Positions 42,127 through 61,560 are shown, counted from the first letter of the stretch. The stretch: 64,000 bases of DNA from a virus (IMGVR_UViG_3300045988_123324:54950-118949), one strand, 5' to 3'. Notes: generated by a model from the sequence alone, not told the origin. Numbers and translations: made by a program.

Positions 42127-42131
42127 TTAGC

Positions 42132-42395: not shown

Positions 42396-42420
42396 CCCCT
42401 CTTCGGAGGGGTTTTCTTTT
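42396..42420 (+). terminator. intrinsic terminator with UUCG loop
   Basis: CCCCTC-TTCG-GAGGGG followed by TTTTCTTTT. Confidence 0.7.
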
Positions 42421-42489
42421 GCGCTGCTATTGAGAATGATTCTCTTTCTTGTTGTAACCGATCTGGTTACAGCGATAGCGGAAAAATAG

Positions 42490-42765
42490 AAAAACTGAAA
42501 TTTTTCTGAAATAAAGAAAAATCAGAAAATTCCCTGATAGTCTGAATCTCAAAAATTTTCAGAATAATCTATATATAGTAGAATAGTCATACAATAAGAA
42601 TAGTCCGAAAACTCAGTTACCTAAATAGTCTGAAAATGTGAATCGTCTGATAATAAGAATCGTCACGCAATTCCAATTATCTGATTATTCAGTTATCTGA
42701 AAATTCTGTTATCTGAATCGTCTGAAAATTCCATTAGTTAGTAGAGCGAATAGTCTGAATACTCT
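42490..42765 (+). repeat. about 11 direct copies of GAAT(A/C)GTCTGAA-like iterons
   Basis: Examples: ATAGTCTGAATC, AATAGTCCGAAAA, ATAGTCTGAAAAT, AATCGTCTGATAA, GTTATCTGAAAAT, AATCGTCTGAAAAT, AATAGTCTGAATA. Confidence 0.75.
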
Positions 42766-42775
42766 CTGTATATAT

Positions 42776-42886
42776 AATTGTTATATAATTGTTAGTGGGG
42801 TCTTGATGGGGTCTGTAGCCGCCCTATATAATTGTTTACCTATTCTAGTGGGGTTTATATAATTGTTACGTAAAATCAGTGGGGAA
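42776..42886 (+). repeat. bipartite motif AATTGTTA-N(0-10)-GTGGGG(TC), cluster A (4 copies)
   Basis: AATTGTT(A/T) at 42776, 42787, 42830 and 42861. GTGGGG at 42795, 42849 and 42879, plus GATGGGGTC at 42805. Confidence 0.75.
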
Positions 42887-43082
42887 TGGTTTTGTAACCA
42901 AGCTAAGTTTACATTTAACCACTAAAAGCACTCTACCATAAATGAAAATCGATAAAACCCCCCCTATAGGGATACAACCCCTAAAAATTAGGTGCTCATC
43001 CATAAATGCCATTTATGGTAATTCTGCCTTTTCCAAGAATTAAACTCATTATAGTTTACATTAAACCGCCTTAAACAGGTAG

Positions 43083-43117
43083 TTATCCACTGTTTTCTGT
43101 TGATAACCTGTTGATAA
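43083..43117. promoter_or_regulatory. three DnaA-box-like 9-mers
   Basis: TTATCCACT (43083-43091, plus strand). TTATCAACA twice on the minus strand (43098-43106 and 43109-43117). The consensus is TTATNCACA. Confidence 0.5.
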
Positions 43118-43229
43118 CTACTGTTTCTGCAAAAATTTGCCTAGGTTTTGCCAAAGAAATTTGCCAAGTGACGCTATTTTTTGCTAATTCACCAATGACA
43201 ATAAAACTTGTCATTTCTACTGTCTACTA

Positions 43230-43700
43230 TATGCTATTATCTCTACTATATCTTATTTATCTATATTCTATTACTAATCTTTTTTCTTTCTTTGTTTTCT
43301 CCCCCGATGGGTTCTTCTCTTTCTGTATCTACTGGTTCTTTTCTCTCTTTTATTTTTCCCCCGACTTTTTCCCTATTTCTTTTCTCTATGTCTAATCTTT
43401 TCTTCCTTCTCTTTTCTCCCATGAACGGGTTCTTTTCTCTCTCTCTTTTATCTTTTCCCGCCGTGAAAGTGTTATTCTCTCTTCCTCTTTTCTCCCCCGA
43501 AACCTATTTTCTTTCTTCCCCTCCTATGTGCTATTATCTTTTCTCTTCCCTCTATGTTTTATTTCCTCCTATGACTTTCCCCTGCTGTGATCTCTGCTAT
43601 CTTTCCTTATATGGCTGTCTCTTTCTCTCCTATCTTCCCCCGACGGGTTCTTTGTTCATTGTAGCTTTTCCGCTGTGATCTCTCTTTCCCCCGATCTGCC
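43230..43700 (+). repeat. about 470-bp polypyrimidine (plus-strand) tract with a recurring TCCCCCGA(N)GGGTTCT motif
   Basis: Motif copies: TTTCTCCCCCGATGGGTTCTT, TTTTCCCCCGAC, CTCCCATGAACGGGTTCTT, TTCTCCCCCGAAAC, CTTCCCCCGACGGGTTCTT, TTTCCCCCGATC. Confidence 0.75.
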
Positions 43701-43804
43701 TTTTCACCGCCCTAGGGGTTCTGTTACACTCTGTTAGGCTCTATGTGTCCAATTCTATGGTTAATGTCATACCGTGATACCTACGTCCTATTTTTCTTGC
43801 CAAT

Positions 43805-43975
43805 TCATTTTTTGAATACGCCCTTCCTAGGAAAATCTTTCTTATGCCTGTTTTGAATCCGCCCTCCTTTTTGAAATCGCCCCTTCCCTTGAATCCGCCG
43901 CATATATTAAATGAATCACCCCCCTACACCTTTTAGAATAGCCCCTCTATGCCCTTAAAATACCCCTAGAATCGC
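43805..43975 (+). repeat. six to seven copies of TTTTGAAT(N)CGCCC(C)TTCC-like iterons spaced about 18-23 bp apart
   Basis: GAATACGCCC, GAATCCGCCC, GAAATCGCCCC, GAATCCGCCG, GAATCACCCCCC, GAATAGCCCC, GAATCGC. Confidence 0.7.
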
Positions 43976-44056
43976 TTTTAATGCCCTGCCTATACCTAGT
44001 ATACCCCTTGCGTTTTTAGACGCTTAAAAGGGCTATCTTTTGATAGCCACTCGTTG

Positions 44057-45735: not shown

Positions 45736-45744
45736 TCGTCTCTG

Positions 45745-46152
45745 TTACTTAATGCCGTAGTAGTTCATCTCACACTCGTTAATCCAGTTAATGAACGTGT
45801 CCTTGTCTAGGTTTTCCCTTCTCACAGTAACGCCGTTGCGTTCCATGTAATAGCTCCCCTGCTCTTTGTCTGCATCGTACACTGAACGGTATTCGCTTCC
45901 ATCCTTGCGAATCTTTACCTTCTCATAGTAGATGCTATTCCCTTCCTTGCGAACACTAATCTGTAATGACGCGGTGTCAATGACAATCCCGCTTGCAGCG
46001 TTCGCAAGTGCCGATACCTTCCAATAGGGAAAGCTCTGATCTCCCAGCATAAAATCATCCGCCGTGTCCTCCCTGTTAAACTTGATGCTAACGCGGTTGA
46101 TAACCACGCTAACACCATAGGCGCAACGGATTGCATCTTCAATCTTCTTCAT
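45745..46152 (-). CDS. hypothetical protein (135 aa)
   Basis: AAGGAGGA RBS. Confidence 0.5.
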   Translation of the reverse strand: MKKIEDAIRCAYGVSVVINRVSIKFNREDTADDFMLGDQSFPYWKVSALANAASGIVIDTASLQISVRKEGNSIYYEKVKIRKDGSEYRSVYDADKEQGSYYMERNGVTVRRENLDKDTFINWINECEMNYYGIK

Positions 46153-46198
46153 GGTAGTTCCTCCTTGACTCTAGGGCTTAATGTTTAACTCTATAAGT

Positions 46199-46227
46199 AT
46201 AATATCATAGTGAATTGGTTAAGTCAA
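46199..46227 (-). promoter_or_regulatory. early-type sigma-A promoter
   Basis: Minus strand TTGACT, 17-nt spacer, TATTAT. A TATTATACTTGTCGAA copy lies immediately upstream. Confidence 0.55.
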
Positions 46228-46251
46228 TTCGACAAGTATAATACATCCAAC

Positions 46252-46285
46252 AAAAAAAATAGAGAAGTTTTTTAGACTTCTCTAT
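46252..46285 (-). terminator. intrinsic terminator
   Basis: ATAGAGAAG...CTTCTCTAT hairpin followed by a U8 run. Confidence 0.65.
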
Positions 46286-46291
46286 TCTATC

Positions 46292-46837
46292 TTAAATCCT
46301 CCTTCCATCTTCCATATACATATCATCACAGTTTATCAGTATCTCTCTGATATACTCGTCGCTTTCCATCTCTTCTATATACTTATATCCCTCTTCTTCC
46401 AGCGTGTCCCTAACGCTCTTATACCATTCCTCGACGGCGTTCTGTAGCTTCTCCCACTCATCATCATAATATTCTTGACTGTCATAGCATGTATCTGCAT
46501 CAATGTCAATATCAACCGTGTATGATGTGTGCCATACGTATTTTGGGAAAATATTGATAATCGTGTTTTCTGTATCCTTGACAAGGTGCGCGAATGGCAT
46601 CTTGTCGATCTCATGTCCTTCAATCCGTCCCGTAAAGCGCAATCCGTCTCCTTGCCTGTAACAAAGAGAATATTCAAGGTCAAAAGACATCCCCGCAAGT
46701 TCCTTGAGTCTTTCTCTTAGATAATCTTCAAGATCACTGCTATAGTCATTGTATTGCCTATATTCGTCAATAAGACGTTCCTGCACGTCCTCAGACAGTT
46801 CCTCAAACGTATATGCCTTAATTGTGATCTCTTTCAT
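46292..46837 (-). CDS. acidic protein (181 aa), of the kind seen in plasmid leading-region or anti-restriction loci (weak call)
   Basis: MKEITIKAYTFEELSEDVQERL... It is very D/E/Y-rich and ends YMEDGRRI. Confidence 0.45.
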   Translation of the reverse strand: MKEITIKAYTFEELSEDVQERLIDEYRQYNDYSSDLEDYLRERLKELAGMSFDLEYSLCYRQGDGLRFTGRIEGHEIDKMPFAHLVKDTENTIINIFPKYVWHTSYTVDIDIDADTCYDSQEYYDDEWEKLQNAVEEWYKSVRDTLEEEGYKYIEEMESDEYIREILINCDDMYMEDGRRI

Positions 46838-46839
46838 GG

Positions 46840-47088
46840 TTACATCTCCTTCATAAGCATATCCAGCGCATCTGCATGGACATAGTGAATTACTGCATCG
46901 GGATACTCTTCCAAGAATCTGTTTGTGTATTTGCTTGTCGTTCGCGAAAACTTCTCCTCTCTCACAAACATATCTCCCGACTCTCTCACATACACCGCAA
47001 TAGGCGTTTCATAACTCTGAAATACTATCGCTTTCTTTGTATGAATAACGAACTGATTCTTGACACCGCAAAAGTTTTCTGCTTTCAT
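46840..47088 (-). CDS. hypothetical protein (82 aa)
   Basis: GGAAGGGAG RBS before MKAENFCGV. Contains SYETPIAVY...FSRTTSKYTN. Confidence 0.45.
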   Translation of the reverse strand: MKAENFCGVKNQFVIHTKKAIVFQSYETPIAVYVRESGDMFVREEKFSRTTSKYTNRFLEEYPDAVIHYVHADALDMLMKEM

Positions 47089-47090
47089 TT

Positions 47091-47390
47091 TTAGCTCTCC
47101 CTTCCTGTCAATGCACATAGCATCTCATACAATACATTATCAATATACTCTTTATTCCTTGCTTGTACCTCCTTATTGAGATAGAATGCTACAAGCGCAT
47201 CCAGCCCCCTGATAAACGGTGCGCCGTCAAGCCCTCCTACATAAAGAGTTTTCCCGCTAAACCATGTGTCTGATTCAGTGCTAGGTGCGATCTCTATGAG
47301 TGTATCATAGACGTTATTCCCTAATGAGTGAGAAAACAAGTCAAGGTAAATATTCATTCCGTTGACTTTCGTTTCATAGTACCGATTCAT
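47091..47390 (-). CDS. hypothetical protein (99 aa)
   Basis: GGAGGAG RBS. Confidence 0.45.
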   Translation of the reverse strand: MNRYYETKVNGMNIYLDLFSHSLGNNVYDTLIEIAPSTESDTWFSGKTLYVGGLDGAPFIRGLDALVAFYLNKEVQARNKEYIDNVLYEMLCALTGRES

Positions 47391-47391
47391 T

Positions 47392-47769
47392 TCAGTTCTC
47401 CTCCATGTACTTTTTCAAACACTCAACGAAAAATTCAACATCTGCATCCGTCTGATAGTATTCGCCGCGAAAAGCCGCTGTACTCATCCGATCTACAATA
47501 TCAAAAGCTGTATTATAGATACACTCAACGATAAACAGTTCGGGGTTCTCTGCATAAGAAGTAGTGATATAATACTTCTTAACGGCTTTTTGCACGTCAT
47601 CAAAATAGGTGTTTATAAAATTTATGCAATTATCCCTTCCATACATATAAGCACCTGCTTCAAGGTCATTGCCAAAAATGCAATCTGCTTCTTCTCCATA
47701 CTCACAGCCGATCAATACGTCTGCTTGTGCAATCATCTCGTTTGCTACATACTTTTCGAAAGCATTCAT
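47392..47769 (-). CDS. hypothetical protein, paralog of 48540-48944
   Basis: AGGAGG RBS. MNAFEKYVANEMI... aligns with MNALEKWIVEDMI... Confidence 0.5.
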   Translation of the reverse strand: MNAFEKYVANEMIAQADVLIGCEYGEEADCIFGNDLEAGAYMYGRDNCINFINTYFDDVQKAVKKYYITTSYAENPELFIVECIYNTAFDIVDRMSTAAFRGEYYQTDADVEFFVECLKKYMEEN

Positions 47770-47815
47770 AGTTTTTACCTCCTGCCTTTCGGCTCTAGTT
47801 CCTTTCGACAAGTAT

Positions 47816-47844
47816 AATATAACATATCCTGCATATAATGTAAA
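47816..47844 (-). promoter_or_regulatory. early-type sigma-A promoter
   Basis: Minus strand TTTACA, 17-nt spacer, TATATT, followed by ATACTTGTCGAAAGGAAC. Confidence 0.55.
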
Positions 47845-47916
47845 GTTAGAAGTTTATTAAATCGCGCAAGGGATTTAATATGCAAAAAGGACTGTCTATA
47901 AAGACAGCCCTTCTTC

Positions 47917-48144
47917 TCATTCGTCATACAGATTCATAATGTCTTCAAGTTCAAACCAGATAAAGTCATTCACTTGCGTGTCTGTAGGGATTTCGTCTGA
48001 AAATGTTTCTTCAATGATCTGCATCGCCTCTTCTTCCCTTCCTTGTTTGATAATCTCGTCAAGTGTACCCATTGCACCGCTCCACGATTCGTCATAGAGT
48101 TCATAGAGACTGTCAAAATTCATTTCTTTTCGTACCGTTAGCAT
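47917..48144 (-). CDS. acidic small protein (75 aa)
   Basis: AGGAGG RBS. Confidence 0.45.
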   Translation of the reverse strand: MLTVRKEMNFDSLYELYDESWSGAMGTLDEIIKQGREEEAMQIIEETFSDEIPTDTQVNDFIWFELEDIMNLYDE

Positions 48145-48155
48145 TTTACATCCTC

Positions 48156-48341
48156 CTAATAGTAATGCCCTTCACACTCATAGACAAGCTTGTTTTCTTC
48201 AAGCAGCTTCATGATCTCATGATATACCATGCGATCAAATTCTTCAATCGTCCCTGCATAAAACATCGGGACTTTAATTTTCACCTGCATAAGGAATGGA
48301 TAACCGCAATTATCTTGATCTTCATTCCAATCCTCCCACAA
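48156..48341 (-). CDS. hypothetical protein (start codon uncertain, TTG)
   Basis: The frame lacks an ATG. A well-placed AGGAGG-N8-ATG at about 48371 is in a different frame. Confidence 0.35.
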   Translation of the reverse strand: MWEDWNEDQDNCGYPFLMQVKIKVPMFYAGTIEEFDRMVYHEIMKLLEENKLVYECEGHYY

Positions 48342-48386
48342 ATAAATTCCGCTCCCTGTCTCTTCTTCAACATTTTTATTTCCTCC

Positions 48387-48491
48387 TTATTTGATATAAG
48401 CCCTCGTATACTTCAAGAATGTGCCGTCTGCATCCTGCACCTCACACAGTACAGGTTTTCCGAACAGCTTGTGACGAATCCATTTAAACAT
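48387..48491 (-). CDS. small protein (34 aa, below the track cutoff)
   Basis: AAAGGAG RBS 7 nt before ATG. MFKWIRHKLFGKPVLCEVQDADGTFLKYTRAYIK. Confidence 0.3.
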   Translation of the reverse strand: MFKWIRHKLFGKPVLCEVQDADGTFLKYTRAYIK

Positions 48492-48539
48492 TTCATATCT
48501 CCTTTACAGGAAGGGCTTTCGCCCTTCCCCTGCACGTCC

Positions 48540-48944
48540 TTAATCTGCAATGGCTTCTTTCAGTTCTGCCTTGATCTGCTTTATGACCTCCTCAGTATAT
48601 TCCACCTCCTCATTCCAGTTTTCCCGAACCCATTCAGATTCACTAATCAACCTGCTTGCAGCGTTGAGAACGATCTTCACCATGAAAGCACATTCATTTT
48701 CAAAGGGATTTGGATATTCACCGAAATTGAACTCATAGTCCTCCATCTCGTCTTTCAGTTCGTTCCAGTAGGTGTTAATCCACTCCCTAGCATCGCTGTA
48801 ATAGGCGTAACAAGTGATAACGCCGTTATAGTTATCCTCCTCATAGAGAAGATAGGCAAGGTCACAAGGATAACCGCCTAAGTCCTCCACGCCGTCAAGA
48901 CGTTCAATCATATCTTCTACAATCCACTTTTCCAATGCGTTCAT
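48540..48944 (-). CDS. hypothetical protein, paralog of 47392-47769
   Basis: AAAGGAG RBS. It has its own promoter. Confidence 0.5.
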   Translation of the reverse strand: MNALEKWIVEDMIERLDGVEDLGGYPCDLAYLLYEEDNYNGVITCYAYYSDAREWINTYWNELKDEMEDYEFNFGEYPNPFENECAFMVKIVLNAASRLISESEWVRENWNEEVEYTEEVIKQIKAELKEAIAD

Positions 48945-48988
48945 TTTTGATCTCCTTTTCTGATAGGTGATTAACTTCTATGTGTATA

Positions 48989-49017
48989 ATGTAACACATA
49001 ATAGGTAGGTAGTCAAA
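48989..49017 (-). promoter_or_regulatory. early-type sigma-A promoter
   Basis: Minus strand TTGACT, 17-nt spacer, TACATT. Confidence 0.5.
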
Positions 49018-49028
49018 TTAGAGTTTCA

Positions 49029-49214
49029 TTAACGCATAACAATCTTTACGCCGTGAGAAGTAAATCGTTCATGAAACTTCATTCTCTCCACAATGTCAAC
49101 AATCACACATTCTGCATCCATCCACTCACCAAAACTTGATCTCTTGTATGTGTGAGTGACAGTTCCTTTTGGACTGTAAACCTTAATGGTTTTTGCCTTG
49201 TCAATGGTTTTCAT
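49029..49214 (-). CDS. hypothetical protein (61 aa)
   Basis: AAGGAG RBS before MKTIDKAKT. Confidence 0.45.
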   Translation of the reverse strand: MKTIDKAKTIKVYSPKGTVTHTYKRSSFGEWMDAECVIVDIVERMKFHERFTSHGVKIVMR

Positions 49215-49265
49215 GGCTTCTCCTTTTCCTAGGGACTGCCTTGTTAGACAGTCCCTAACTACCAA

Positions 49266-49517
49266 TTAGATAACTACAGTGCGGTACTCATTCGGCTTCT
49301 GCTGAATGAGTGCAAGACGCTTTCCGTCCTCATTGTAAAACGTGATCTCTCCATCAAACGAATCCACAAAATCCTGCCATTTCTTGTAGGAAATGACTTT
49401 GCCGTTGCACTCATAACCAGTGCTTGCACTCGTATATGTTTTTTCTCCTTCCTTGTTGGAGAATACCGCCGAATAAATGTTAGAAATGAGAGAATCAAAC
49501 TTGATAATGTTTTTCAT
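49266..49517 (-). CDS. hypothetical protein (83 aa)
   Basis: AAGGAGG RBS before MKNIIKFDS. Confidence 0.45.
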   Translation of the reverse strand: MKNIIKFDSLISNIYSAVFSNKEGEKTYTSASTGYECNGKVISYKKWQDFVDSFDGEITFYNEDGKRLALIQQKPNEYRTVVI

Positions 49518-49565
49518 GGTAGTACCTCCTTGCGCTTTCGCGCTGTCAATGTTTATCATGGTTAT

Positions 49566-49594
49566 AATATAACATAGTAAAAGTTAGCTGTCAA
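49566..49594 (-). promoter_or_regulatory. early-type sigma-A promoter
   Basis: Minus strand TTGACA, 17-nt spacer, TATATT. Confidence 0.6.
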
Positions 49595-49602
49595 TACTTT
49601 TG

Positions 49603-49637
49603 AAAAAAAAATAGAGAAAAGCATAAAAACTTTTCTC
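49603..49637 (-). terminator. intrinsic terminator
   Basis: GAGAAAAG...CTTTTCTC hairpin followed by a U9 run. Confidence 0.65.
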
Positions 49638-49646
49638 CATCCTTTA

Positions 49647-49904
49647 TTACTTGCACTTCTCCACGATCTCATGAATGATATCGCATATCATGACTTTCTT
49701 TTCTTTTGCTCGTGACTTTACCCATTCAAGGTCATATGCATATACGGCTGTATGCTTCACGCCTAGACGCTTATTCCGCGCCTTTACATATTCTCGTAGA
49801 TAATCCCTCTTTTCCTGCTTCTTTGCTTCCTTGCAGGCGGGACAAACATAGGAACGTGACGCGCCGTCGAACTCTTTTCCACACTTAGAGCAATGTTTAA
49901 TCAT
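49647..49904 (-). CDS. zinc-ribbon protein (85 aa)
   Basis: CSKCGKEF...YVCPACKEAKK. Confidence 0.5.
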   Translation of the reverse strand: MIKHCSKCGKEFDGASRSYVCPACKEAKKQEKRDYLREYVKARNKRLGVKHTAVYAYDLEWVKSRAKEKKVMICDIIHEIVEKCK

Positions 49905-50236
49905 GCCGCCGCCTCCTTCTTCTTATCCTTCACGAAGCAGGGGATGCCGTTCTGCATCTCAAAGGCAGGCTTCCTATCCTTCATCTCCTTGTCACTCTTG
50001 AAAAGATAGTCCATATCCTTCCCAGCCGTCGCAGCCTTCCCCTTCTCTGCCTTTGCCGCCGCATCCAGACGCCTAAAATAGTCCTTCATACGGCTATAGG
50101 GCTTCCCCTCCTTCTGCTCCTGCACCTTGCCATGACGGATAGAGAGCGTAATGCTCCCGTCCTTGCTCGTGCGCTTAACAATCGTAACGCCCTTTGCATT
50201 GATGATCTCGCCGATAGTAAAGTTCTTGTTCTGCAT
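49901..50236 (-). CDS. basic protein (111 aa)
   Basis: AAAGGAG RBS. The C-terminal half is K-rich. Confidence 0.45.
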   Translation of the reverse strand: MQNKNFTIGEIINAKGVTIVKRTSKDGSITLSIRHGKVQEQKEGKPYSRMKDYFRRLDAAAKAEKGKAATAGKDMDYLFKSDKEMKDRKPAFEMQNGIPCFVKDKKKEAAA

Positions 50237-50271
50237 GATGATTTCTCCTTTTCTTTTATAAACCTAGTGGA

Positions 50272-50655
50272 TTATTCCACTTCTAAACCAAGCTTTTCCT
50301 GATAACCATTGTCATAAACCCATGCCGTAAAGTCGGCAATGTCATAGGCAATAACATGATTATAATATGTCTCAATATTGCCCGAATGAATCTTCCCATT
50401 CTGAATCCAGAACCCATCCGAATCGAATGAGAAGTCAAACACAATTTTAGGATATAGTTCCTTGAAAGAATCTCCACACACTTTTTTGAAATTCTGCATT
50501 GGATAAAACTTATCCTCATACTGATTATCTTCAAGGTATTCATTCCATACTCTGACAACATCTTTATAATAGCACTCGTTTTCGATCTGCTCCTGCAAGT
50601 CAAGGAGAGCGTTCTCCCTGACTGCATCCGCTTTCGGCGTTGTTAGTGTATTCAT
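50272..50655 (-). CDS. hypothetical protein (127 aa)
   Basis: AGGAGG RBS 8 nt before ATG (MNTLTTPKADA). Confidence 0.45.
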   Translation of the reverse strand: MNTLTTPKADAVRENALLDLQEQIENECYYKDVVRVWNEYLEDNQYEDKFYPMQNFKKVCGDSFKELYPKIVFDFSFDSDGFWIQNGKIHSGNIETYYNHVIAYDIADFTAWVYDNGYQEKLGLEVE

Positions 50656-50669
50656 GTCTTTGCCCTCCT

Positions 50670-50792
50670 TCACGCCGCCTTATTCAGCTTTTTCAGACTG
50701 TCAAGCAGCAAGTGCTTGCTTTTTGTCTGAAAAACGATCTTGCGATCTTTTCTAATGATGTACCATCCCATGACATAGTTCCAGCTTAACAT
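50670..50792 (-). CDS. small protein (40 aa, below the track cutoff)
   Basis: MLSWNYVMGWYIIRKDRKIVFQTKSKHLLLDSLKKLNKAA. It is the first ORF after the promoter at 50836-50865. Confidence 0.3.
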   Translation of the reverse strand: MLSWNYVMGWYIIRKDRKIVFQTKSKHLLLDSLKKLNKAA

Positions 50793-50835
50793 TTTAATCT
50801 TCTCCTTTTATAGATGTTATCGCTTAACTGTATAT

Positions 50836-50865
50836 ACTATATCATATACAGTTATTGCTTGTCAA
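50836..50865 (-). promoter_or_regulatory. early-type sigma-A promoter
   Basis: Minus strand TTGACA, 18-nt spacer, TATAGT. Confidence 0.5.
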
Positions 50866-50880
50866 TACCTTTTTGAAAAA

Positions 50881-51129
50881 TTAATATGGAAAATGTACAT
50901 CATAATAATCATATATCTTTTCGGTAAACGCTTCATCTCCTAGCAGCTCTACATTTACAATAGCATCGACAACCAGACTTGCAAGAAGTCTGTTTGACAT
51001 TCTCTTTCCCTCGATTACTTCCCATCCAGCATGGGATATAGCTCTCACGCAAGCAGCATATAACTTCTCGTGCGCGTCTGCATCCATCTTGTTGATAATG
51101 CTTTCTGCTTCAATATACAGTTCATCCAT
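50881..51129 (-). CDS. hypothetical protein (82 aa)
   Basis: AAAGGAGGA RBS. Confidence 0.45.
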   Translation of the reverse strand: MDELYIEAESIINKMDADAHEKLYAACVRAISHAGWEVIEGKRMSNRLLASLVVDAIVNVELLGDEAFTEKIYDYYDVHFPY

Positions 51130-51144
51130 TTTCTGTTTCCTCCT

Positions 51145-51300
51145 TTAATTGACTCTTTTAAGATTCTCAATGATAAATTCCAGTTCATTCAGACAGCCCG
51201 CATAAAACGCTTTTTGCTTTTCCGTCTTTGCAGCTTCACTGTTACGTTCCGCATTTTTCATGCGGTGCTCGTAGTAGTTAATCAGTTCTTCAATCTTCAT
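51145..51300 (-). CDS. small protein (51 aa)
   Basis: AAGGAGGA RBS before MKIEELINYYEH. Confidence 0.4.
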   Translation of the reverse strand: MKIEELINYYEHRMKNAERNSEAAKTEKQKAFYAGCLNELEFIIENLKRVN

Positions 51301-51343
51301 TCTGTTCCTCCTTGTGCTCTGCACTGTTCCTTTCGACAAGTAT

Positions 51344-51372
51344 AATATAACATATCCTTGACTATGTGTCAA
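51344..51372 (-). promoter_or_regulatory. early-type sigma-A promoter
   Basis: Minus strand TTGACA, 17-nt spacer, TATATT, followed by ATACTTGTCGAAAGGAAC. Confidence 0.6.
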
Positions 51373-51381
51373 TACTTTTAC

Positions 51382-51413
51382 AAAAAAATAGACTAGCTTT
51401 TTCTGCTAGTCTA
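51382..51413 (-). terminator. intrinsic terminator
   Basis: TAGACTAGC...GCTAGTCTA hairpin followed by a U7 run. Confidence 0.65.
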
Positions 51414-51419
51414 ATTGCG

Positions 51420-51722
51420 TTATGCAAGGTCTGAGAATGCTTCTTCCAGCTTGCTTTTGTAGTCCTTGATGATCTCCACAATCATATTATGTACGTGTGC
51501 GTCAATCACCTGCACTTGCGTTAATGATGCGCTATCTTCATCTCCTGCAAGGGCATCGAACTGTACCGTGCTTGCCATACCTGCCTGTATAACAATAGGA
51601 CTGATTCGCGTGTAATCATCAACGCCGCTAGGGTCTGTTAGGTCTAATTGATCTAACAGCTTCTCAACATCGTGGAGACGGTTTTTAATTGCATTCCCTT
51701 GATTCAATAGTTCATCCGTCAA
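51420..51722 (-). CDS. hypothetical protein (100 aa)
   Basis: ORF overlapping the upstream gene by 11 nt. Confidence 0.45.
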   Translation of the reverse strand: MTDELLNQGNAIKNRLHDVEKLLDQLDLTDPSGVDDYTRISPIVIQAGMASTVQFDALAGDEDSASLTQVQVIDAHVHNMIVEIIKDYKSKLEEAFSDLA

Positions 51723-52071
51723 TATTCTTCACCTCTTCATAATCAAAAAACGCCTTAACTGATTCTACCTCAATATCAATCTTCCCATTGTTGTATGTTG
51801 GAACAATGGTATAATATGTGTCGTTGTTTTCCTTCCCTGCCACACGCACACGCATTTCTACTAATGCGCCGTTGATTGTACTGTATTCGTAGCACCTGCC
51901 ATACTTCATGATAACATTGATATCATGCTTTAATTCCGCGCCTGTGATCTCACCTGCATTGAATCGAATCAGACTTTTGATCTTCCTAATCGACTCAATA
52001 TCAAAGCGTGGATTCTCAATGTGATAATTCTTCTCTGTTCCTTCAACGTGCTTTTCAGTCTTAATATACAT
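51712..52071 (-). CDS. hypothetical protein (119 aa)
   Basis: AAGGAAGGA RBS. Confidence 0.45.
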   Translation of the reverse strand: MYIKTEKHVEGTEKNYHIENPRFDIESIRKIKSLIRFNAGEITGAELKHDINVIMKYGRCYEYSTINGALVEMRVRVAGKENNDTYYTIVPTYNNGKIDIEVESVKAFFDYEEVKNIDG

Positions 52072-52086
52072 AGTAATTTCCTTCCT

Positions 52087-52299
52087 TTAAAATGTTTCAC
52101 ATGAAACAATGTGCATAAAATCTTCAACAAGCGGTACGATATACTGTTTGTTATTCACAGTATAGAATCCCTTGTTTTCTTCATAAATCCATTCGGCGCG
52201 GCTGTTTTTGCCAATGAACTGAATCATGCACTCACCTGCATTGATCTTGACATTTTTAAGGGTTTTTGCGAACTCGTTGAGTTCCATTCTTGCGTTCAT
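52087..52299 (-). CDS. hypothetical protein (70 aa)
   Basis: GGAAGGAAG RBS. Confidence 0.45.
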   Translation of the reverse strand: MNARMELNEFAKTLKNVKINAGECMIQFIGKNSRAEWIYEENKGFYTVNNKQYIVPLVEDFMHIVSCETF

Positions 52300-52353
52300 G
52301 TTTAATCTTCCTTCCTGTCATGGAGAGTGGATTAAACCACTCTCCTATTTCCT

Positions 52354-52713
52354 TCACAGTGTGATATAAGGCACGCCTTCTTCTCTAAGTTTTTCCATAA
52401 ATGCCTCTTTACCGAGGCGTTCTTTCTTATCAACAATTTTCCCCTGTTCTGATATTTCAATGTTTCCAGCCCCGAACTCATAAAGGAATACTGCCATGAA
52501 TGAATTTCTATACTCACATCCCTTCATGATAGCGATACTTGCAATTTTATCATCCTGCATGATGAGAATTGCGTGATGCTTGTTGACGATCTGAATCTCT
52601 TTTGCCTTCTCCACGTCTCTAAGTCGCGGCTTTTCAAACGTGTCCTTCCCGTCAAGTTTTACGCTATCCGCGAAAAACAAAAGGTTTTGCATAATCACGC
52701 GGTCAATCTTCAT
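52354..52713 (-). CDS. hypothetical protein (119 aa)
   Basis: AAGGAGGA RBS. Confidence 0.45.
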   Translation of the reverse strand: MKIDRVIMQNLLFFADSVKLDGKDTFEKPRLRDVEKAKEIQIVNKHHAILIMQDDKIASIAIMKGCEYRNSFMAVFLYEFGAGNIEISEQGKIVDKKERLGKEAFMEKLREEGVPYITL

Positions 52714-52764
52714 GATGTTCCTCCTTGCCTTGTTAGGCTTTCAGTGTTTTAACTTGTGCCTATT

Positions 52765-53196
52765 CTAACATGGCAAAAAGGACTTGTCAAGCCTTTTGAG
52801 AAAATAAATTTTCGTCGCGTGATCTGCCTTTATCTTGCCTTGCAAGACTAGGTTTATCACCGCCCCTGCTATCATGTCACGCTTGCTATAATATAGTTTA
52901 TACATAACCGATAAGGTGTTATCACTAACTTTTTCTTCCTTATATATGGAAGGAAGATATTTTTTATAAAAGGCGTGGGACTTCTCTAAGCCCGTGGTTA
53001 TGCACATTACATCCCTTTTCTGTATCAGTTTATCGAATAGCTCTAATGCCGCCATATCCTTAAATATTTCCTTGTTATATATAAAATATAATGGTTTACA
53101 TTTAACTTCAAATAGTCCTTTTGGCTTCTGCAAGTCCTCTAAGATGTTGCGGCTGTAGGTGTAGCCGTCTTTTGGCTCGTCAAATTTTAGTCCCAT
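52765..53196 (-). CDS. hypothetical protein (143 aa)
   Basis: AAAGGTG RBS before MGLKFDEPK. It overlaps the upstream stop. Confidence 0.45.
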   Translation of the reverse strand: MGLKFDEPKDGYTYSRNILEDLQKPKGLFEVKCKPLYFIYNKEIFKDMAALELFDKLIQKRDVMCITTGLEKSHAFYKKYLPSIYKEEKVSDNTLSVMYKLYYSKRDMIAGAVINLVLQGKIKADHATKIYFLKRLDKSFLPC

Positions 53197-53798
53197 ATCC
53201 AGCACCTTTTTAGCCTGTCAAAGTGATATTTCCAAAAAATATTATGCGTGCAAAGGCTTATGTCTCTAAGGATTGCGCCGATCAATTCAAGATTTTTTAT
53301 ATTTTTTTCAAAAGAGGTATTGACATTATACCAATCATGGTTTATATTATACTCAACAAGCGGGATAAAGCCCGCAAGGTCAACATAGAAAGAGAGGTCA
53401 CAAGGTATGGTTTTCAAGGTTTTTGTCGCTAGGAACTCCCTAGCAAGTGGATTCACTTCACGGTCAAGATGCACGACGCGAAAGCGCGATAGTAGCGGAG
53501 GCGGTACGTCATCGGTGCTAGGCGCGACGGCGAACAGCCTGATCGGGCGCGTGCAGTCCTCCAGCGGTTTCAGTAGTGCCAGCGCGGTCGGGACGATGAT
53601 CTCGTGCAGGAAGATTGTTGCCGCGCTCTCCTCCTCGTATATGCGAGTAATTGTTATAATTGTTTCCCTGCTACAGGTGGGGAAGTCAAAGAAATTGTTA
53701 TTGTCTACTAGTGGGGTCAAGAATTGTTTCACCTTGTCTGGCGAGTTTGTCACGAACAGAACTGCGCGTGAATTGTTTATGTCAATCGGTGGGGTCAT
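53187..53798 (-). CDS. clamp-loader delta-prime-like subunit (AAA+ lacking Walker A)
   Basis: IFLHEI...ALALLKPLEDCTRPIRLFAVAPSTDDVPPPLLSRFRVVHL resembles the NALLKTLEEP...SRC region. The start is placed at MTPPIDINN. Confidence 0.5.
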   Translation of the reverse strand: MTPPIDINNSRAVLFVTNSPDKVKQFLTPLVDNNNFFDFPTCSRETIITITRIYEEESAATIFLHEIIVPTALALLKPLEDCTRPIRLFAVAPSTDDVPPPLLSRFRVVHLDREVNPLAREFLATKTLKTIPCDLSFYVDLAGFIPLVEYNINHDWYNVNTSFEKNIKNLELIGAILRDISLCTHNIFWKYHFDRLKRCWIWD

Positions 53799-54264
53799 TT
53801 TCAAGAACCTCAAAGAAATTGTTGATCTGGTCTTGAAGGGTTTGATTCGGATTGTCCTCAAAAACGATGTTATTGTCCTCGTTGATAAATTGTTTCAAGT
53901 AGACACTGTAAATGTTTCTGAACGTGACCTTTGTTACTGCTCCCGTGTCCGCGCTAATTGTTATGTCAACAAGGTGGGGTTGAAAAGGACTCCTGCGCGA
54001 ATTGTTACTGTTGCGTGCATGGGTACTAGAGTACCTGTCCATGATCGTGTGATAAATGTTTGTGAACTGCTCAATCGTCATTGTTCTTCCTCCTATTATA
54101 ATTGTTATGTGAGATTGATGGGGTCGTGTGCGCGTGAATTGTTATGTAAAAGTGGTGGGGTCTAATTGTTATATACAAGTGGGTGGGTCTATAATTGTTA
54201 CATGGAAGTTGATGTGTATAGCTGACACACTAGACTGTAATTGTTATGTATGACTTGGTGGGTA
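53649..54264 (+). repeat. bipartite motif AATTGTTA-N9-10-GTGGGGTC, cluster B (at least 10 copies, all in the same orientation)
   Basis: Full copies at 53693-53718, 53771-53796, 53956-53981, 54100-54125, 54137-54162, 54164-54189 and 54239-54264, plus partial copies. Confidence 0.8.
53782..54081 (-). CDS. hypothetical protein (99 aa) whose coding sequence contains several iteron copies
   Basis: AGGAGG RBS 7 nt before the ATG. Confidence 0.5.
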   Translation of the reverse strand: MTIEQFTNIYHTIMDRYSSTHARNSNNSRRSPFQPHLVDITISADTGAVTKVTFRNIYSVYLKQFINEDNNIVFEDNPNQTLQDQINNFFEVLENDPTD

Positions 54265-54267
54265 TTG

Positions 54268-55233
54268 TTAGCCTATAATCTTAGTCAACTCTGCCAATAA
54301 CAGCTTATCAACAATGGGATTGTTTCGCCCATAATACTGTAAGTCAACCATCATGTCTCGTATCTTCTTGATAATTGTTACGTCAGCATCCGTCAGTCCG
54401 TCTAGTTCTTCCTTATATGCTTCTGGAATGTCTATCATCTCAAAGTCCTTTGTAAGAACATAAATATTCACATCCAAAATAAATGAGAAGAACTGTTCAA
54501 TGTATGTCTGTGCATTGACTATACTCTGTATGTCAGATACAACATGAACAATGTCTTTATCTAGCACATGAAAAAGCATATTAAAGTAGTTATCGTAAGT
54601 ATCTGCCATGAGTGTTTCTTTGATGTTAGCCAGGGTAATGTCTCTGTATGAACATTGTTCTAGATATGCAACAGCCTGGCGCATACTACCCCTAGCCATT
54701 TTTGAAACCACCCCTAGTGCTTTCTCATCGTATTTGAACCCACCCCTATCGCATATGAAACGTAGCCTATTTTGAATAGCCCCACTATCAATGGGTTTGA
54801 ACTCATAGACCTTACACCTATTGAATATAGTCCTAGGTACTTTATCAATCTCAGTCGTACATAGAATGAATACTAGGTAGCTAGGCACTTTTTCGATGTG
54901 TAAGAGTAGCTTGGAAATGGCGATCTGGCTAAGAAGGTGACATTCCTCCCAGACAATAACCTTTCTGTCTTTTGTGAGTGGTCTGACTTTTGAATCTGCT
55001 AAAATCTTCTCCACATCCTCTGCACTACACATACCAGAATCAATCTCATATATCTCTGCATTAAGTTCTCTAGCAAAGATTCTTTGTATTGACGTTTTGC
55101 CTTCGCCCGAGCCACCACAGAACAAATAAGCAGGTTTAGGGTCTTTAACATCGTGTCTGAGTGCATCTATAATTGAATCCTGCCCTACTACTTCATCAAA
55201 TGTTTTTGGTCTGTATTCTTCATTCAGATTCAT
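54268..55233 (-). CDS. clamp-loader ATPase (DnaX gamma/tau or RFC small-subunit-like)
   Basis: YRPKTFDEVVGQ, CGGSGEGKTS (Walker A), VIVWEECHLL (Walker B), LCTTE (sensor 1), and FNRCKVYEF (SRC-like). Confidence 0.8.
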   Translation of the reverse strand: MNLNEEYRPKTFDEVVGQDSIIDALRHDVKDPKPAYLFCGGSGEGKTSIQRIFARELNAEIYEIDSGMCSAEDVEKILADSKVRPLTKDRKVIVWEECHLLSQIAISKLLLHIEKVPSYLVFILCTTEIDKVPRTIFNRCKVYEFKPIDSGAIQNRLRFICDRGGFKYDEKALGVVSKMARGSMRQAVAYLEQCSYRDITLANIKETLMADTYDNYFNMLFHVLDKDIVHVVSDIQSIVNAQTYIEQFFSFILDVNIYVLTKDFEMIDIPEAYKEELDGLTDADVTIIKKIRDMMVDLQYYGRNNPIVDKLLLAELTKIIG

Positions 55234-55510
55234 TCTCTAACTCCTGTATCCTGGCAATAAGAACGTCTACTGCATCATCTCTTAAATACAAAATACCTGC
55301 AACATGCTGTGGTGTATAAACGTATCCAACCTGTTCCCTATACTGTTTAAGTTCTTCCTTGTCTGATCTAAACTTTTCACAGTAGTAATCAAAGGTGTTC
55401 ATGATTTCATGTGCTCTATCCCTTAAAGGAACAAGTTGATTTTCATAATTTCTGCATTCTTCTCGTGAATCAAACATCTTACCATCTTCTGCAATAAATG
55501 CTTCTCTCAT
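55220..55510 (-). CDS. hypothetical protein, paralog of 55507-55863
   Basis: Shared blocks: F(D/T)S/TxEEC..YE and YLRDDAVD(V/I)LI..I..LENE. Confidence 0.5.
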   Translation of the reverse strand: MREAFIAEDGKMFDSREECRNYENQLVPLRDRAHEIMNTFDYYCEKFRSDKEELKQYREQVGYVYTPQHVAGILYLRDDAVDVLIARIQELENESE

Positions 55511-55863
55511 TTCTTTTCCCCCAACTTATTTTCCAACCGATGTACTTCGTTTTCAAGAATACGGATATAGTCAATAAGAATATCAACCGCATCGTCTCTT
55601 AAATAACTTATGCCATATGAGAAGTCACCACAGAATACTGCATCACCATACCTTGTTGGTCTATCTTTCTCTGCAATATAATCATCATCCAATGACTTGT
55701 CATGAGCATAGTCAAGGTACCATTTCATAACAAGATCTGCATGTGCTTTAAGTGGTGGGTCTACGAACTTTTCGTTATACTTTTTCTTTTCAAAACTGCG
55801 TTCATATTCGAGACACTCTTTCTCTGTGGTAAATTCTTTCCCGTCAAATGCCAAATAAGTCAT
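55507..55863 (-). CDS. hypothetical protein, paralog of 55220-55510
   Basis: AGGAGG RBS before MTYLAFDGKEF. Confidence 0.5.
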   Translation of the reverse strand: MTYLAFDGKEFTTEKECLEYERSFEKKKYNEKFVDPPLKAHADLVMKWYLDYAHDKSLDDDYIAEKDRPTRYGDAVFCGDFSYGISYLRDDAVDILIDYIRILENEVHRLENKLGEKK

Positions 55864-55935
55864 AATATTTCCTCCTGTAAGTATCAATTAACTGCACTTA
55901 CTGTAGCAGATACTAGACTAAAAGTCAAGAAGTTT

Positions 55936-56295
55936 TCACCAATCATCAGACGCACAAGACTCTCTCACATTTGCATCAAAATAATAAAGTGTTGATGGCG
56001 GCATATCTTCCCAATTATCAAGAAGTTTTGGGTTTATAATAACATAGATACAGAAAGGTGTTTTCATAGTACCTACATACTCAAGCTCCTGTAATCTATC
56101 TAGGCTTTCTTGAAGTTCTTCGACACTAACATTGACAAAATTTGCTAATTCTAGCATACCAAACTTGGCGGTGTTTTCCTTATCAACAACAGACGAAAGT
56201 CTAATAATTATTGCTATATCTTCATGCGTTAGCTTGCCCTCCTTATTGTGTTCAAATAGCTTAGACAAGTATTCTTTTGAAAATTGTAACTTCAT
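55936..56295 (-). CDS. winged-helix-like protein
   Basis: GGAGGG RBS before MKLQFSKEY. Confidence 0.45.
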   Translation of the reverse strand: MKLQFSKEYLSKLFEHNKEGKLTHEDIAIIIRLSSVVDKENTAKFGMLELANFVNVSVEELQESLDRLQELEYVGTMKTPFCIYVIINPKLLDNWEDMPPSTLYYFDANVRESCASDDW

Positions 56296-56310
56296 AATAA
56301 ATCCCTCCAA

Positions 56311-56745
56311 CTAAAATTCTAAATCATATCTGATATTTTCTTCTTTTTCTTTTCTCATATATGAACTATCCTGATCTACTTCATTATTCTCGAATAGTTC
56401 TAGTGTATCACTAAATATCTTCTTTCCTTTAGATACCATATATGGATTAACAAAGATTTTTATTCTATTGTTTTCCTTGCGAAGCATTTTTATTAGCCCA
56501 GCACTTTCAATGTTCTTTAGGTATTCATAAATGTCCCACCTATTCACATCAGCACTTTCAGCAAGTTTTGGAACGCTTAAAGATATTTCATAACTATATC
56601 CTTTTATGTAATTTAACATGACAAAGAATATTTTATGCTCGCTTTTTGATAACTTATGTTCATTAAGTGTATCATACAACTTCTTTGTTAAAAATACAAC
56701 AGTTTCGCCTGTATCATAGTCAACTATCTTCTTATTGTTCATCAA
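56311..56745 (-). CDS. winged-helix DNA-binding protein (replication initiator or organizer candidate) with a conserved C-terminal tail
   Basis: KLSKSEHKIFFVMLNY...VPKLAESADVNRWDIYEYLKNIESAGLI. The tail is RKEKEENIRYDLEF. Confidence 0.5.
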   Translation of the reverse strand: MMNNKKIVDYDTGETVVFLTKKLYDTLNEHKLSKSEHKIFFVMLNYIKGYSYEISLSVPKLAESADVNRWDIYEYLKNIESAGLIKMLRKENNRIKIFVNPYMVSKGKKIFSDTLELFENNEVDQDSSYMRKEKEENIRYDLEF

Positions 56746-56752
56746 TCATTTA

Positions 56753-57001
56753 CTACTCCTTTTCTATATAATCTATTTGTATTAAACCCCTTGTTTTATA
56801 AATACATCCCTTATCGTGTAACTTTTTTAGCATCAACAATAGGTATGGGTACGCATAATCAAGTTTAACTGATAGGTCTTTCACAGAACAAAATCTGACA
56901 ATTCCACTATCATCTGCCATAACCCACAACTTCCATAAAAGATGTAATTCACTCTTGTTTTCAATCTTGTTGATAATACCTTCTGGAACTGTTATTCGCA
57001 T
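56753..57001 (-). CDS. small winged-helix-like protein (82 aa)
   Basis: GGAGG RBS. It is the first gene downstream of the palindrome array. Confidence 0.45.
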   Translation of the reverse strand: MRITVPEGIINKIENKSELHLLWKLWVMADDSGIVRFCSVKDLSVKLDYAYPYLLLMLKKLHDKGCIYKTRGLIQIDYIEKE

Positions 57002-57164
57002 ATATTAACCTCCGACATAAAGTTTTTATTATATAAAATAACTACTAATCATCATTCAAACAAAAAGCCGTAAATACATAACGGCAATCTGTTTGAACAA
57101 TAAGAATATGTAAATTATAACATAAAAAAGTGATTCAGTCAAGTCATTTCTGTATTTACATCAC

Positions 57165-57284
57165 TGGGAAAAACACACTGGGATTTTCCCATAGTATGGG
57201 ATTTTCCCATAGATATTAAGAAGTTACTGGGATTTTCCCAGAACTACTATGGGATTTTCCCAGTACGGTTCTGGGATTTTCCCA
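57165..57284. repeat. five perfect copies (plus one degenerate) of the near-palindrome TGGGATTTTCCCA
   Basis: Perfect copies at 57179, 57197, 57228, 57250 and 57272. The variant TGGGAAAAACACA is at 57165. Confidence 0.85.
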
Positions 57285-57329
57285 TAGTCTGATCGGCTCG
57301 CACTTAGAGTCACAAGGGCTGGCGGGTTC

Positions 57330-57540
57330 CTAATAATATATAATAAATTAAATAAATTAAAGAATAAGAGCATTGGTCGGAATAAATTCCTCCCGAATGC
57401 CCTTGGGGAATCCTCTAGTGATTATAAAATATTCCGAAATTTTATACTAAATTATAAAATATTTATATTAAATTAAAAGATAGATATATTTAATCCTATA
57501 AATAGTCTTAAATATATCTATAGAAAAATTACGAGCTAGT
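57330..57540. repeat. very AT-rich tract with short direct repeats (candidate DNA-unwinding element)
   Basis: ATAAATTAAATAAATTAAAG. ATTATAAAATAT occurs twice (57421 and 57450). TAAATATATCTATAG is also present. Confidence 0.5.
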
Positions 57541-61359: not shown

Positions 61360-61560
61360 AAATACTTATTGACATACTCCCCACGGCTAAAGCCTTGGAG
61401 ATTCTGAAGTGACTAACGTTTTCTGCCCTCTCGCGAGGGACTTACGAGAACTCCTATCATTGGACAATGCCCTGCCCAATTTTATATATTTAAGCCGTTT
61501 CTGATACTAAACGCAGCCCTTCACTGTGTATATTCGCCGCCGCATTTCGGTCGCGGTCAT
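61360..61560 (-). ncRNA. candidate omega RNA (reRNA) of the TnpB element, spanning the tnpB 3' end and right end
   Basis: By analogy with IS200/IS605 TnpB. The structured tail ...CCCUCGCGAGAGGG... and CUCCAAGGC-UUUA-GCCGUGGGG lies just after the stop codon. Boundaries are approximate. Confidence 0.4.

Follow-up and report, generated by a model that had tools for sequence, protein, structure and literature searches.

Two co-oriented arrays of a bipartite DNA motif, one of them running through clamp-loader genes, are conserved in related metagenomic phages and may be replication sites

Background

Why would a phage run the same short DNA motif many times, always in one orientation, through two of its protein genes? 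This question is raised by a 64-kb stretch of viral DNA (IMGVR_UViG_3300045988_123324:54950-118949), referred to below as the window. An initial annotation, made by inspection of the sequence, had reported there an array of at least 10 bipartite motifs running from the gap after a clamp-loader ATPase gene into the 5' end of a delta-prime-like gene, and had likened it to iterons, centromere-like sites or a nucleation array. We analyzed how the motif is distributed, whether it is under selection in related phages, and which of the possible functions agrees best with its layout and its gene context.

Definition and distribution of the motif

The two-box array is real and far above chance. Copies were found where inspection had placed them, and the pattern AATTGTT-N8-14-KGGGK has 13 matches in the window versus 0.22 expected from dinucleotide shuffles, none of the 100 shuffles reaching 13. 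The unit, AATTGTT(A)-N10/11-(G)TGGGGT(C), is 26 bp long and is composed of two boxes, called here the A-box and the G-box. By itself AATTGTT is not over-represented (29 occurrences in the whole window versus 26.5 expected); 19 of these 29 fall in the two arrays described below, all on the + strand. A position-weight matrix (PWM) was derived from 12 copies and both strands of the window, i.e. 64 of the 119 kb of the genome, were scanned with it. All matches of at least 14 bits lie within 53658-54264 (array A) or 42776-42886 (array B) and all are on the + strand, which confirms the single orientation reported earlier. Within the 64-kb window the motif is confined to these two clusters and is not scattered at the frequency expected from composition. 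The observation is stronger than first reported, array B being a second cluster that had not been seen. The features are listed in Table 1.

Table 1. Copies of the motif in arrays A and B, the region that holds array B, and the genes at array A (positions in the window)
Feature	Position	Strand	Details
Non-coding hub holding array B	42414..44056		1.6 kb, gene-free
Array B, two interleaved copies	42776..42813	+	Order A-box, A-box, G-box, G-box (AATTGTTATATAATTGTTAGTGGGGTCTTGATGGGGTC); offset 11 bp, 11-bp gaps
Array B, copy 3	42830..42855	+	PWM 24.5 bits
Array B, copy 4	42861..42886	+	PWM 26.9 bits
Delta'-like clamp-loader subunit	53187..53798	-	203 aa; 23 homologues; Foldseek RFC/delta' matches
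A-box only (AATTGTT)	53649..53655	+	In delta'-like CDS; 9 bp before the next copy; kept in all relatives (8)
Full copy, AATTGTTT-N10-GGTGGGGA	53658..53683	+	In delta'-like CDS, read FPTCSRETII; PWM 20.2 bits; in all relatives
Full copy	53693..53718	+	In delta'-like CDS, read LTPLVDNNNF; PWM 27.7 bits
A-box only, degenerate G-box GGCGAGTT	53722..53728	+	In delta'-like CDS
Full copy	53771..53796	+	PWM 27.6 bits; arrangement shared by relatives
ORF99, 99-aa orphan	53782..54081	-	Whole gene in array A; AGGAGG ribosome-binding site; 31 homologues
Weak copy, G-box GAAGGGTT	53817..53842	+	In ORF99; PWM 14.1 bits; conserved
A-box only	53888..53894	+	In ORF99
Full copy	53956..53981	+	In ORF99 (QPHLVDITIS); PWM 26.1 bits; degenerate in L243/L145/L247 clade
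Copy, G-box CATGGGTA	54000..54025	+	In ORF99 (THARNSNNS); PWM 23.6 bits; no G-box in L243/L145/L247 clade
Intergenic copy	54100..54125	+	PWM 29.0 bits; copy adjacent to ribosome-binding site in all relatives
Intergenic copy, closest to consensus	54137..54162	+	PWM 32.8 bits; preceded by GCGCGTG
Intergenic copy	54164..54189	+	PWM 29.3 bits
Weak intergenic copy, G-box GATGTGTA	54193..54218	+	PWM 18.7 bits
Intergenic copy	54239..54264	+	PWM 28.3 bits; ends 4 bp from the clamp-loader stop codon
Clamp-loader ATPase (DnaX-like)	54268..55233	-	Pfam DNA_pol3_delta2 (1.6e-12), AAA, DNAX_ATPase_lid

A sequence logo drawn from 75 distinct instances, taken from the window and from nine related loci, shows an invariant AATTGTT followed by a weak A-T-G-T extension, a free spacer and (G)(T)G-GGG-T-(C), with a weak GCGCG just upstream of the G-box. 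Between the end of the A-box and the G-run there are 13 bp in 41 cases and 14 bp in 28, i.e. the geometry is fixed within 1 bp. The half-sites had been described as one helical turn apart, which is incorrect: the gap between the boxes is 10-11 bp, but their centres are about 18.5 bp or about 1.75 helical turns apart. About one third of the clustered A-boxes stand without a G-box, and conservation extends to these A-box-only copies too.

Array A (53649-54264) contains nine strong copies together with weak and A-box-only copies, giving about 14 A-boxes. It covers the gap between the clamp-loader gene and ORF99, the whole of ORF99 and the 5' end of the delta'-like gene, whose first 50 codons or so hold two A-boxes besides three full copies. 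Relative to these genes all copies are antisense, and the motif is translated in different frames, as had been noted, the A-box being read AAC-AAT-T (NNS/NNF), A-ACA-ATT (TI) or AA-CAA-TT (KQF). Two copies are placed at gene starts: the A-box of the copy at 54100 ends 5 nt before the Shine-Dalgarno sequence of ORF99 (- strand), and the G-box of the copy at 53771 both adjoins and overlaps the end of ORF99 and the start codon of delta' (ATGACCCCAC, - strand). The spacings of the intergenic copies (27, 29, 35, 37, 42 and 46 bp) are out of helical phase; over the whole array the spacing is irregular (9-104 bp), with repeats that are not contiguous and not phased. An AT-rich unwinding element is absent from array A, which adjoins the most GC-rich 150 bp of the region (33-41% AT). 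A half-copy at 54373 is not conserved in relatives and is probably a chance occurrence.

Array B consists of four copies, the first two of them interleaved, and this interleaved layout is conserved in L139, L163, L245 and L248, the four relatives in which array B was found (see below). Its spacings (11, 43 and 31 bp) correspond to about 1, 4 and 3 helical turns. The array lies in a non-coding hub bounded on one side by the terminator of a + strand gene block and on the other by the stop codon of a 383-aa - strand gene, the two units being convergent. The hub carries at least four other repeat families, and easily melted AT-rich stretches flank the array, at 42502 (12th among the least stable 100-bp stretches of the window) and 43200 (5th). 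DnaA boxes at 43079-43121 were discarded, as they are not conserved in L139 or L163. No relatives of the 383-aa gene were found in IMG/VR by peptide patterns, and an Rfam search of 40000-57500 gave no match.

Several features that seemed to accompany the motif were examined and rejected. A strand-specific avoidance of stray A-boxes (1 observed versus about 13 expected under low-order models) is explained by composition, since an order-4 Markov model expects 2.2. The Chi-like GCGCGTG is found beside only 3 copies in array A, another 3 occurrences lying in the GC island, and relatives carry GCGCGCG or CTGCGCG in its place. A CRISPR array does not fit, the interior of the repeat being variable and the gaps between copies running from overlap to about 75 bp.

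Conservation in related phages

Searches of GenBank phage DNA for near and distant matches found none to either array. By exact-pattern scans and protein look-ups we recovered nine related metagenomic phage loci. Five carry array A only (L244/L002, from IMG/VR, 118 kb; L243, 111 kb; L145, 107 kb; L247; L192) and two carry array B only (L139, L163). Both arrays are present in L245 (126 kb) and L248 (103 kb), 9.6 and 8.0 kb apart respectively; these are the sole relative loci long enough to span both, the shorter ones covering A or B. There are no matches outside the two arrays in the 20-kb loci of L245 and L248, and in every related locus the copies are antisense to the genes. None of about 200 unrelated control loci, drawn in by single chance matches, has clustered matches, and a loose pattern scan of IMG/VR returned single chance matches only. 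An exact motif within a 75-bp tandem repeat of L168, an unrelated 43%-GC contig that has no proteins in common with the window, was treated as chance.

Pairwise diversity was calculated from an alignment of eight array A sequences in which the box positions were set from the window alone. For the intergenic part it is 0.05 in boxes versus 0.39 outside (p < 5e-5), and for the third codon positions of ORF99 and delta' it is 0.05 versus 0.33 (permutation p = 5e-5). Conservation had been proposed to act on the DNA and not on the protein, and the wobble positions bear this out. The spacers are the most variable class, even where amino acids change: between LTP and N-N-F the delta' proteins have LVD, QDL or SDL (LTP-LVD-NNF, LTP-QDL-HNF, LTP-SDL-HNF), and a spacer in ORF99 reads HLVD or HQFY. 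In the copy at 53693, six of the nine spacer positions differ from those of L001 and the boxes are intact. Selection at the DNA level is well supported, because the boxes are near-invariant at wobble and intergenic sites while the spacers turn over.

The identity of delta' to that of the window is 77% in L248, 69% in L245 and, at its lowest, 63% in L243; down to this level the relatives keep the motif in the regions covered, and no case was seen of the proteins being kept and the motif lost. Individual copies come and go: the number of intergenic copies is 2-6 across relatives, the flanks also drift, and two copies internal to ORF99 have decayed in the clade formed by L243, L145 and L247. The three delta' copies and the copy beside the ORF99 ribosome-binding site are universal among the aligned relatives. 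Array B forms a conserved island whose flanks barely align. These sites exist, at only two loci in 64 kb; they are polar and are kept by DNA-level selection.

In favour of a repeat without function, left over from the local spread of a small mobile or slippage-generated element, is the variation in intergenic copy number between relatives. Strong purifying selection on exactly the two boxes, wobble positions included, largely refutes this reading; moreover the spacing of the boxes is fixed, and both loci are kept in relatives whose flanks cannot be aligned. We give it almost no credit.

Genes at the arrays and candidate binding proteins

The gene directly upstream of array A in the direction of transcription was correctly assigned to a clamp-loader ATPase, as seen from its Pfam matches (Table 1). 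The 203-aa delta'-like protein has no Pfam or PDB sequence match; its AlphaFold model (pLDDT 76-84, residues 31-110) is matched by Foldseek to small subunits of RFC and to E. coli delta' (1jr3_E, 8val_E) with a probability of 1.0, so that the predicted fold agrees with the delta-prime-like label. The 99-aa ORF proves to be a real gene, with its ribosome-binding site, its homologues and an excess of substitutions at third codon positions. It is unusually conserved, most homologues being 94-100% identical (80-90% for delta'). A long antisense ORF (53407-54165) was rejected as coding, the wobble sites of ORF99 being its first codon position.

At higher coordinates than array A lie genes for a NYN nuclease, TnpB and a Pnkp-type RNA repair enzyme, followed by a three-gene block encoding winged-helix (wHTH) proteins. 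About 25 small unknown genes separate the clamp-loader operon from the hub. Below the hub is a + strand block with an exonuclease, PhoH and an island of about 50% GC and, further down, tRNAs, terminase, portal, capsid, helicase, NrdD, helicase loader, DnaB and primase. GC skew tracks transcription and gives no independent origin signal.

We searched these genes for a protein that could bind the motif. The neighbouring wHTH proteins, hinted at in the initial annotation, are poor candidates for the binder: in L145, L243, L244, L247 and L248 the three-gene block is missing from that position, other genes replacing it, and array A is kept. The trio (55936-57001), which has weak TrmB and Rep3 WH1 matches, was also discarded as leading binder on account of its own setting, behind five TGGGAAAATCCCA palindromes and a near-consensus promoter; such palindromes are what wHTH proteins acting as dimers naturally bind. 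Further off, at 34592-35167, an HTH_36 protein is a paralogue of the wHTH type, and nothing links it to the motif. No Pfam or PHROG DNA-binding domain was found in the conserved neighbours, small ORFs included, and none of these, nor ORF99 or delta', shows an initiator-like domain. ORF99 was rejected as a RegA-like or other known DNA or RNA binder: it has no Pfam or PHROG match, and its AlphaFold model (pLDDT 79) has no PDB or BFVD match.

The comparison with RegA arises from a likeness at the RNA level. The A-box with its weak 3' extension, AATTGTTATGTAA, is identical over 13 nt to the SELEX consensus of T4 RegA, AAUUGUUAUGUAA (PMC3014915), and the motif could be an operator read in the transcript by an RNA-binding translational repressor. 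The clamp-loader operon setting (T4 regA follows the clamp-loader genes) and the copies at the translation starts of ORF99 and delta' agree with this. However, the RegA-like sequence is read on the + strand, antisense to all three genes; only its 7-nt core is invariant, positions 8-13 being weak; array B lies in untranslated DNA; and ORF99 has no match to Pfam Translat_reg, its model being unlike 1REG or any solved structure. The G-rich second box and the non-coding second locus likewise have no counterpart in RegA. Since the motif is antisense and no RegA-like protein is present, we treat the likeness as chance, and an RNA operator appears very improbable.

Partition systems have co-oriented direct-repeat arrays that are bound by small adaptor proteins and split in two blocks. 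In R1 parC, the tubC of pBtoxis and c-st, and F sopC, co-oriented repeats, often in two blocks, nucleate a higher-order complex. The two loci per genome would suit a centromere-like array of this kind, or sites where a protein that coats or condenses DNA is nucleated. Against this, the ORFs of the window that were searched include no ParA, ParM or TubZ-like gene, and no partition NTPase or adaptor gene is adjacent; the array A repeats are not contiguous and not phased, and one array lies in essential coding sequence. The lineage of TerL is lytic or pac-type, and functions of a plasmid-prophage were not seen. A role in partition or genome organisation is thus improbable.

Possible functions of the arrays

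The polar two-box site, its many repeats, its two loci and the selection acting on it together argue for a specific DNA-binding protein that assembles a higher-order complex. That such a protein binds, what its identity might be and that it serves replication are points that we infer. Most likely the arrays are docking sites for a phage DNA-binding protein in replication or its control. In its specific form, this reading makes them iteron-like replication sites, with two nucleoprotein complexes arranged like oriL and oriR of Bacillus phage SPP1; we put its probability at somewhat less than 40%.

Each unit would be bound in one orientation by a sequence-specific, phage-encoded protein that has two reading heads, or by two proteins acting as a pair. 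The 14 or so A-boxes of array A and the four units of array B would then nucleate two large nucleoprotein complexes, 8-11 kb apart, serving replication in a layout like that of SPP1. Array B would be the origin-like site, with its gene-free hub, near-integral helical spacing and easily melted AT-rich flanks. Because array A has no unwinding element and is unphased, it would be an auxiliary or control site, acting through initiator titration, handcuffing or a polar block to the replication fork. Its occupancy would probably also throttle the expression of the downstream clamp-loader subunits, because array A covers the ribosome-binding site of ORF99, the start codon of delta' and the stretch that transcription crosses on leaving the clamp-loader ATPase gene.

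A replication role is favoured by the location of array A within a cluster of replication genes. Other observations point the other way. No initiator was found in the window ORFs searched. Both arrays are about 38-53 kb away from the genes for helicase, loader and primase in the window, so that neither adjoins an initiator-helicase module as in lambda or SPP1. Array A has no AT-rich element and its spacings are unphased, unlike those of plasmid iterons, which are repeated in phase with the DNA helix (PMC5043065).

The closest likeness is with SPP1, whose gp38 protein binds direct repeats at two sites about 13 kb apart, oriL within gene 38 and oriR in a long intergenic region (PMC6316719). In both phages two separate clusters of direct repeats lie about 10 kb apart in one genome, one in the coding sequence of a replication gene and the other in an intergenic region that ranks among the longest, beside AT-rich DNA. 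However, oriL lies in the initiator's own gene next to the loader and helicase genes, whereas array A lies in ORF99 and the delta'-like gene, far from the helicase genes, and lacks an AT-rich element. Sequence similarity to SPP1 is absent, nor was a gp38-like protein found. In lambda, the ori iterons lie inside gene O (PMC5043065), which is likewise a case of repeated replicon-specific sites embedded in coding sequence, but these are inverted repeats bound by dimers. With plasmid iterons (P1 oriR/incA, RK2, R6K; PMC5043065) the arrays have in common many co-oriented direct repeats, and in P1 a further array, incA, lies apart from the origin and serves control. The iterons of plasmids measure 17-22 bp and are contiguous and phased, whereas the units here are 26-27 bp with a free spacer of 10-11 bp, the spacing of array A is irregular, copies are interleaved in array B, and there are additional A-box-only copies.

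Polar fork barriers provide a further comparison. RTP-Ter of B. subtilis and Tus-Ter of E. coli are asymmetric bipartite sites whose orientation matters, and here the copies at the two loci all have the same polarity. Ter sites occur singly or in pairs and not in arrays of 4-14, and no RTP or Tus homologue was seen.

Control of transcription, taken alone, is a close rival and accounts for the layout nearly as well, although we would still call it rather unlikely. The sites would be the operators of a phage regulator, or roadblocks; they would adjust how strongly ORF99 and delta' are expressed compared with the clamp-loader ATPase, and at array B they would stop read-through between the convergent gene blocks. 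Otherwise they would be phage-specific promoters. In every relative a copy lies 5-10 nt upstream of the ORF99 Shine-Dalgarno sequence and another over the delta' start codon; array A is in the path of transcription, without a sigma-A promoter of its own on the - strand, and array B is located between convergent units next to terminators. Sigma-A promoters as such were rejected: on the + strand, TATAAT matches coincide with A-boxes mainly in array B, and the - strand has no consistent promoter. Read on the - strand, GACCCCAC-N10-TAACAAT might represent an upstream activator box and a weak -10, a layout like that of T4 middle promoters, and in this reading of the sequence AACAAT would retain two bases of the -10 hexamer, the A at -11 and the T at -7. 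A promoter class would nevertheless be expected across many operons, and none is present elsewhere in the 64 kb. At least 10 promoters in tandem within 600 bp, half of them in coding sequence, would be odd; the array B copies, read on the - strand, point at no gene; a transcript from the copy nearest ORF99 would begin at or inside its Shine-Dalgarno sequence; and the A-box-only copies are conserved too.

We also considered a previously undescribed system, in which ORF99 would be the two-headed binder, or one of two proteins, that reads the polar sites. These would mark or limit replication, as an origin or a polar fork barrier, and would at the same time gauge the expression of the clamp-loader subunits. 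ORF99 is proposed as binder by analogy with origins that lie within the gene of their initiator, since it is located entirely inside the array. We hold this to be unlikely, though less so than a role in partition.

Conclusion

The arrays are genuine, conserved and dual-coding, and they are a variant of the iteron or binding-site-array theme, not a new category. The dual coding is in itself worth attention: about 400 bp of two protein genes hold at least eight copies of the signal, in three frames, and the resulting selection on wobble positions can be measured. If the arrays are origin or control sites, they would give a first handle on the initiation of replication in an uncultured clade of gut Firmicutes phages of about 103-126 kb that encode their own clamp loader, together with a new bipartite recognition code with which to fish for the binder. 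If their role is regulatory, they would reveal how the ratios of clamp-loader subunits are set by a phage. Either way, the two arrays, being short, can serve directly as probes in pull-down and titration experiments.

Composition and motif-like sequences around array A

The composition of the delta'-like gene, which lies on the - strand in the clamp-loader operon together with array A, the larger cluster of the bipartite motif, was analyzed. Its region 53450-53600 is the GC peak of the neighbourhood (59-67% GC), with a GC skew opposite to that of all other - strand genes. A + strand ORF of 252 codons (53407-54165) is open antisense through ORF99 and the 5' half of delta', and stays open in two related metagenomic phage loci (L145 and L002). 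We considered this ORF as a coding sequence; the substitution phase in its ORF99 part argues against it, and the ORF is probably a by-product of GC-rich, G-box-rich sequence.

Two resemblances to the motif were observed. The A-box with its extension, AATTGTTATGTAA (54137-54153), matches the T4 RegA RNA SELEX consensus aaAAUUGUUAUGUAA at 13 nt, all of them identical; it is antisense to the genes at this position, and equivalent copies were found in L145 and L248. The second is a tandem repeat (unit of about 74-84 bp) at 10050-10680 of L168, a contig of 43% GC (Ga0222716_10004549), in which every unit holds CAATTGTTA-N10-GTGGGGTCA, the exact bipartite motif. No proteins are common to L168 and the window and the contig is unrelated, the motif being there by either chance or convergence.

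Repeat families, putative operators and the AT-rich gap

The gene-free hub (42414-44056) contains several repeat families besides array B, the second motif cluster. They are listed in the table, together with the TnpB genes.

Coordinates of the hub repeats and of the TnpB genes
Feature	Sequence	Coordinates	Remarks
GAATAGTCTGAAAAT-like units	window, hub	42480-42765	resemble a CodY box
TTTGCCA, 4-7 copies	window, hub	43125-43180	also present in L139 and L163
Polypyrimidine tract, 450 bp	window, hub	43280-43700	with TCCCCCGA(T/C)GGGTTCTT repeats
TTGAATNCGCCC, 5-6 copies	window, hub	43809-43970	
TnpB (IS605 OrfB / Cas12f-like)	window	61490-62614	
TnpB (IS605 OrfB / Cas12f-like)	L245	1874-2983 and 6691-7713	
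TnpB (IS605 OrfB / Cas12f-like)	L248	6953-7870	

Three wHTH genes (57001->55936) are headed by a near-consensus promoter, TTGACT-17-TGTTATAAT, at about 57115-57150. Immediately upstream of it, at 57180-57290, the 13-bp palindrome TGGGAAAATCCCA occurs five times in full and once in part. This ensemble looks like a self-contained repressor-operator module.

The 100 bp of lowest stability in the entire window start at 57422 (89% AT), within 57340-57530. The equivalent non-coding gap of L145 is at 3930-4750. The contigs of two IMG/VR relatives, L243 and L244, begin inside the equivalent gap, which suggests that some 2-3 kb upstream of array A the genome ends, a terminal repeat has its boundary or the assembly breaks.

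A split gene, a GC-rich island and a variable zone

NrdD (anaerobic ribonucleotide reductase) is present as two ORFs (9736-10626 and 12130-12984). A gene for an HNH endonuclease lies between them (10898-11419), and the interruption is probably of the intron or intein type. Several more large HNH and homing endonuclease genes are found amid the structural genes (17081-18760, 23350-24435 and 32622-33365).

The region 40000-42400 is an island of about 50% GC within a phage of 35% GC, probably of foreign origin; both of its strands carry ORFs, and the heptamer GCGCGTG occurs in it three times. The TnpB genes are inserted upstream of the clamp-loader operon, at places which differ among relatives. 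The stretch from Pnkp to the clamp loader is thereby marked as a variable island, in which a SocA_Panacea protein (L245) and a YonV_C protein (L247) are also encoded.
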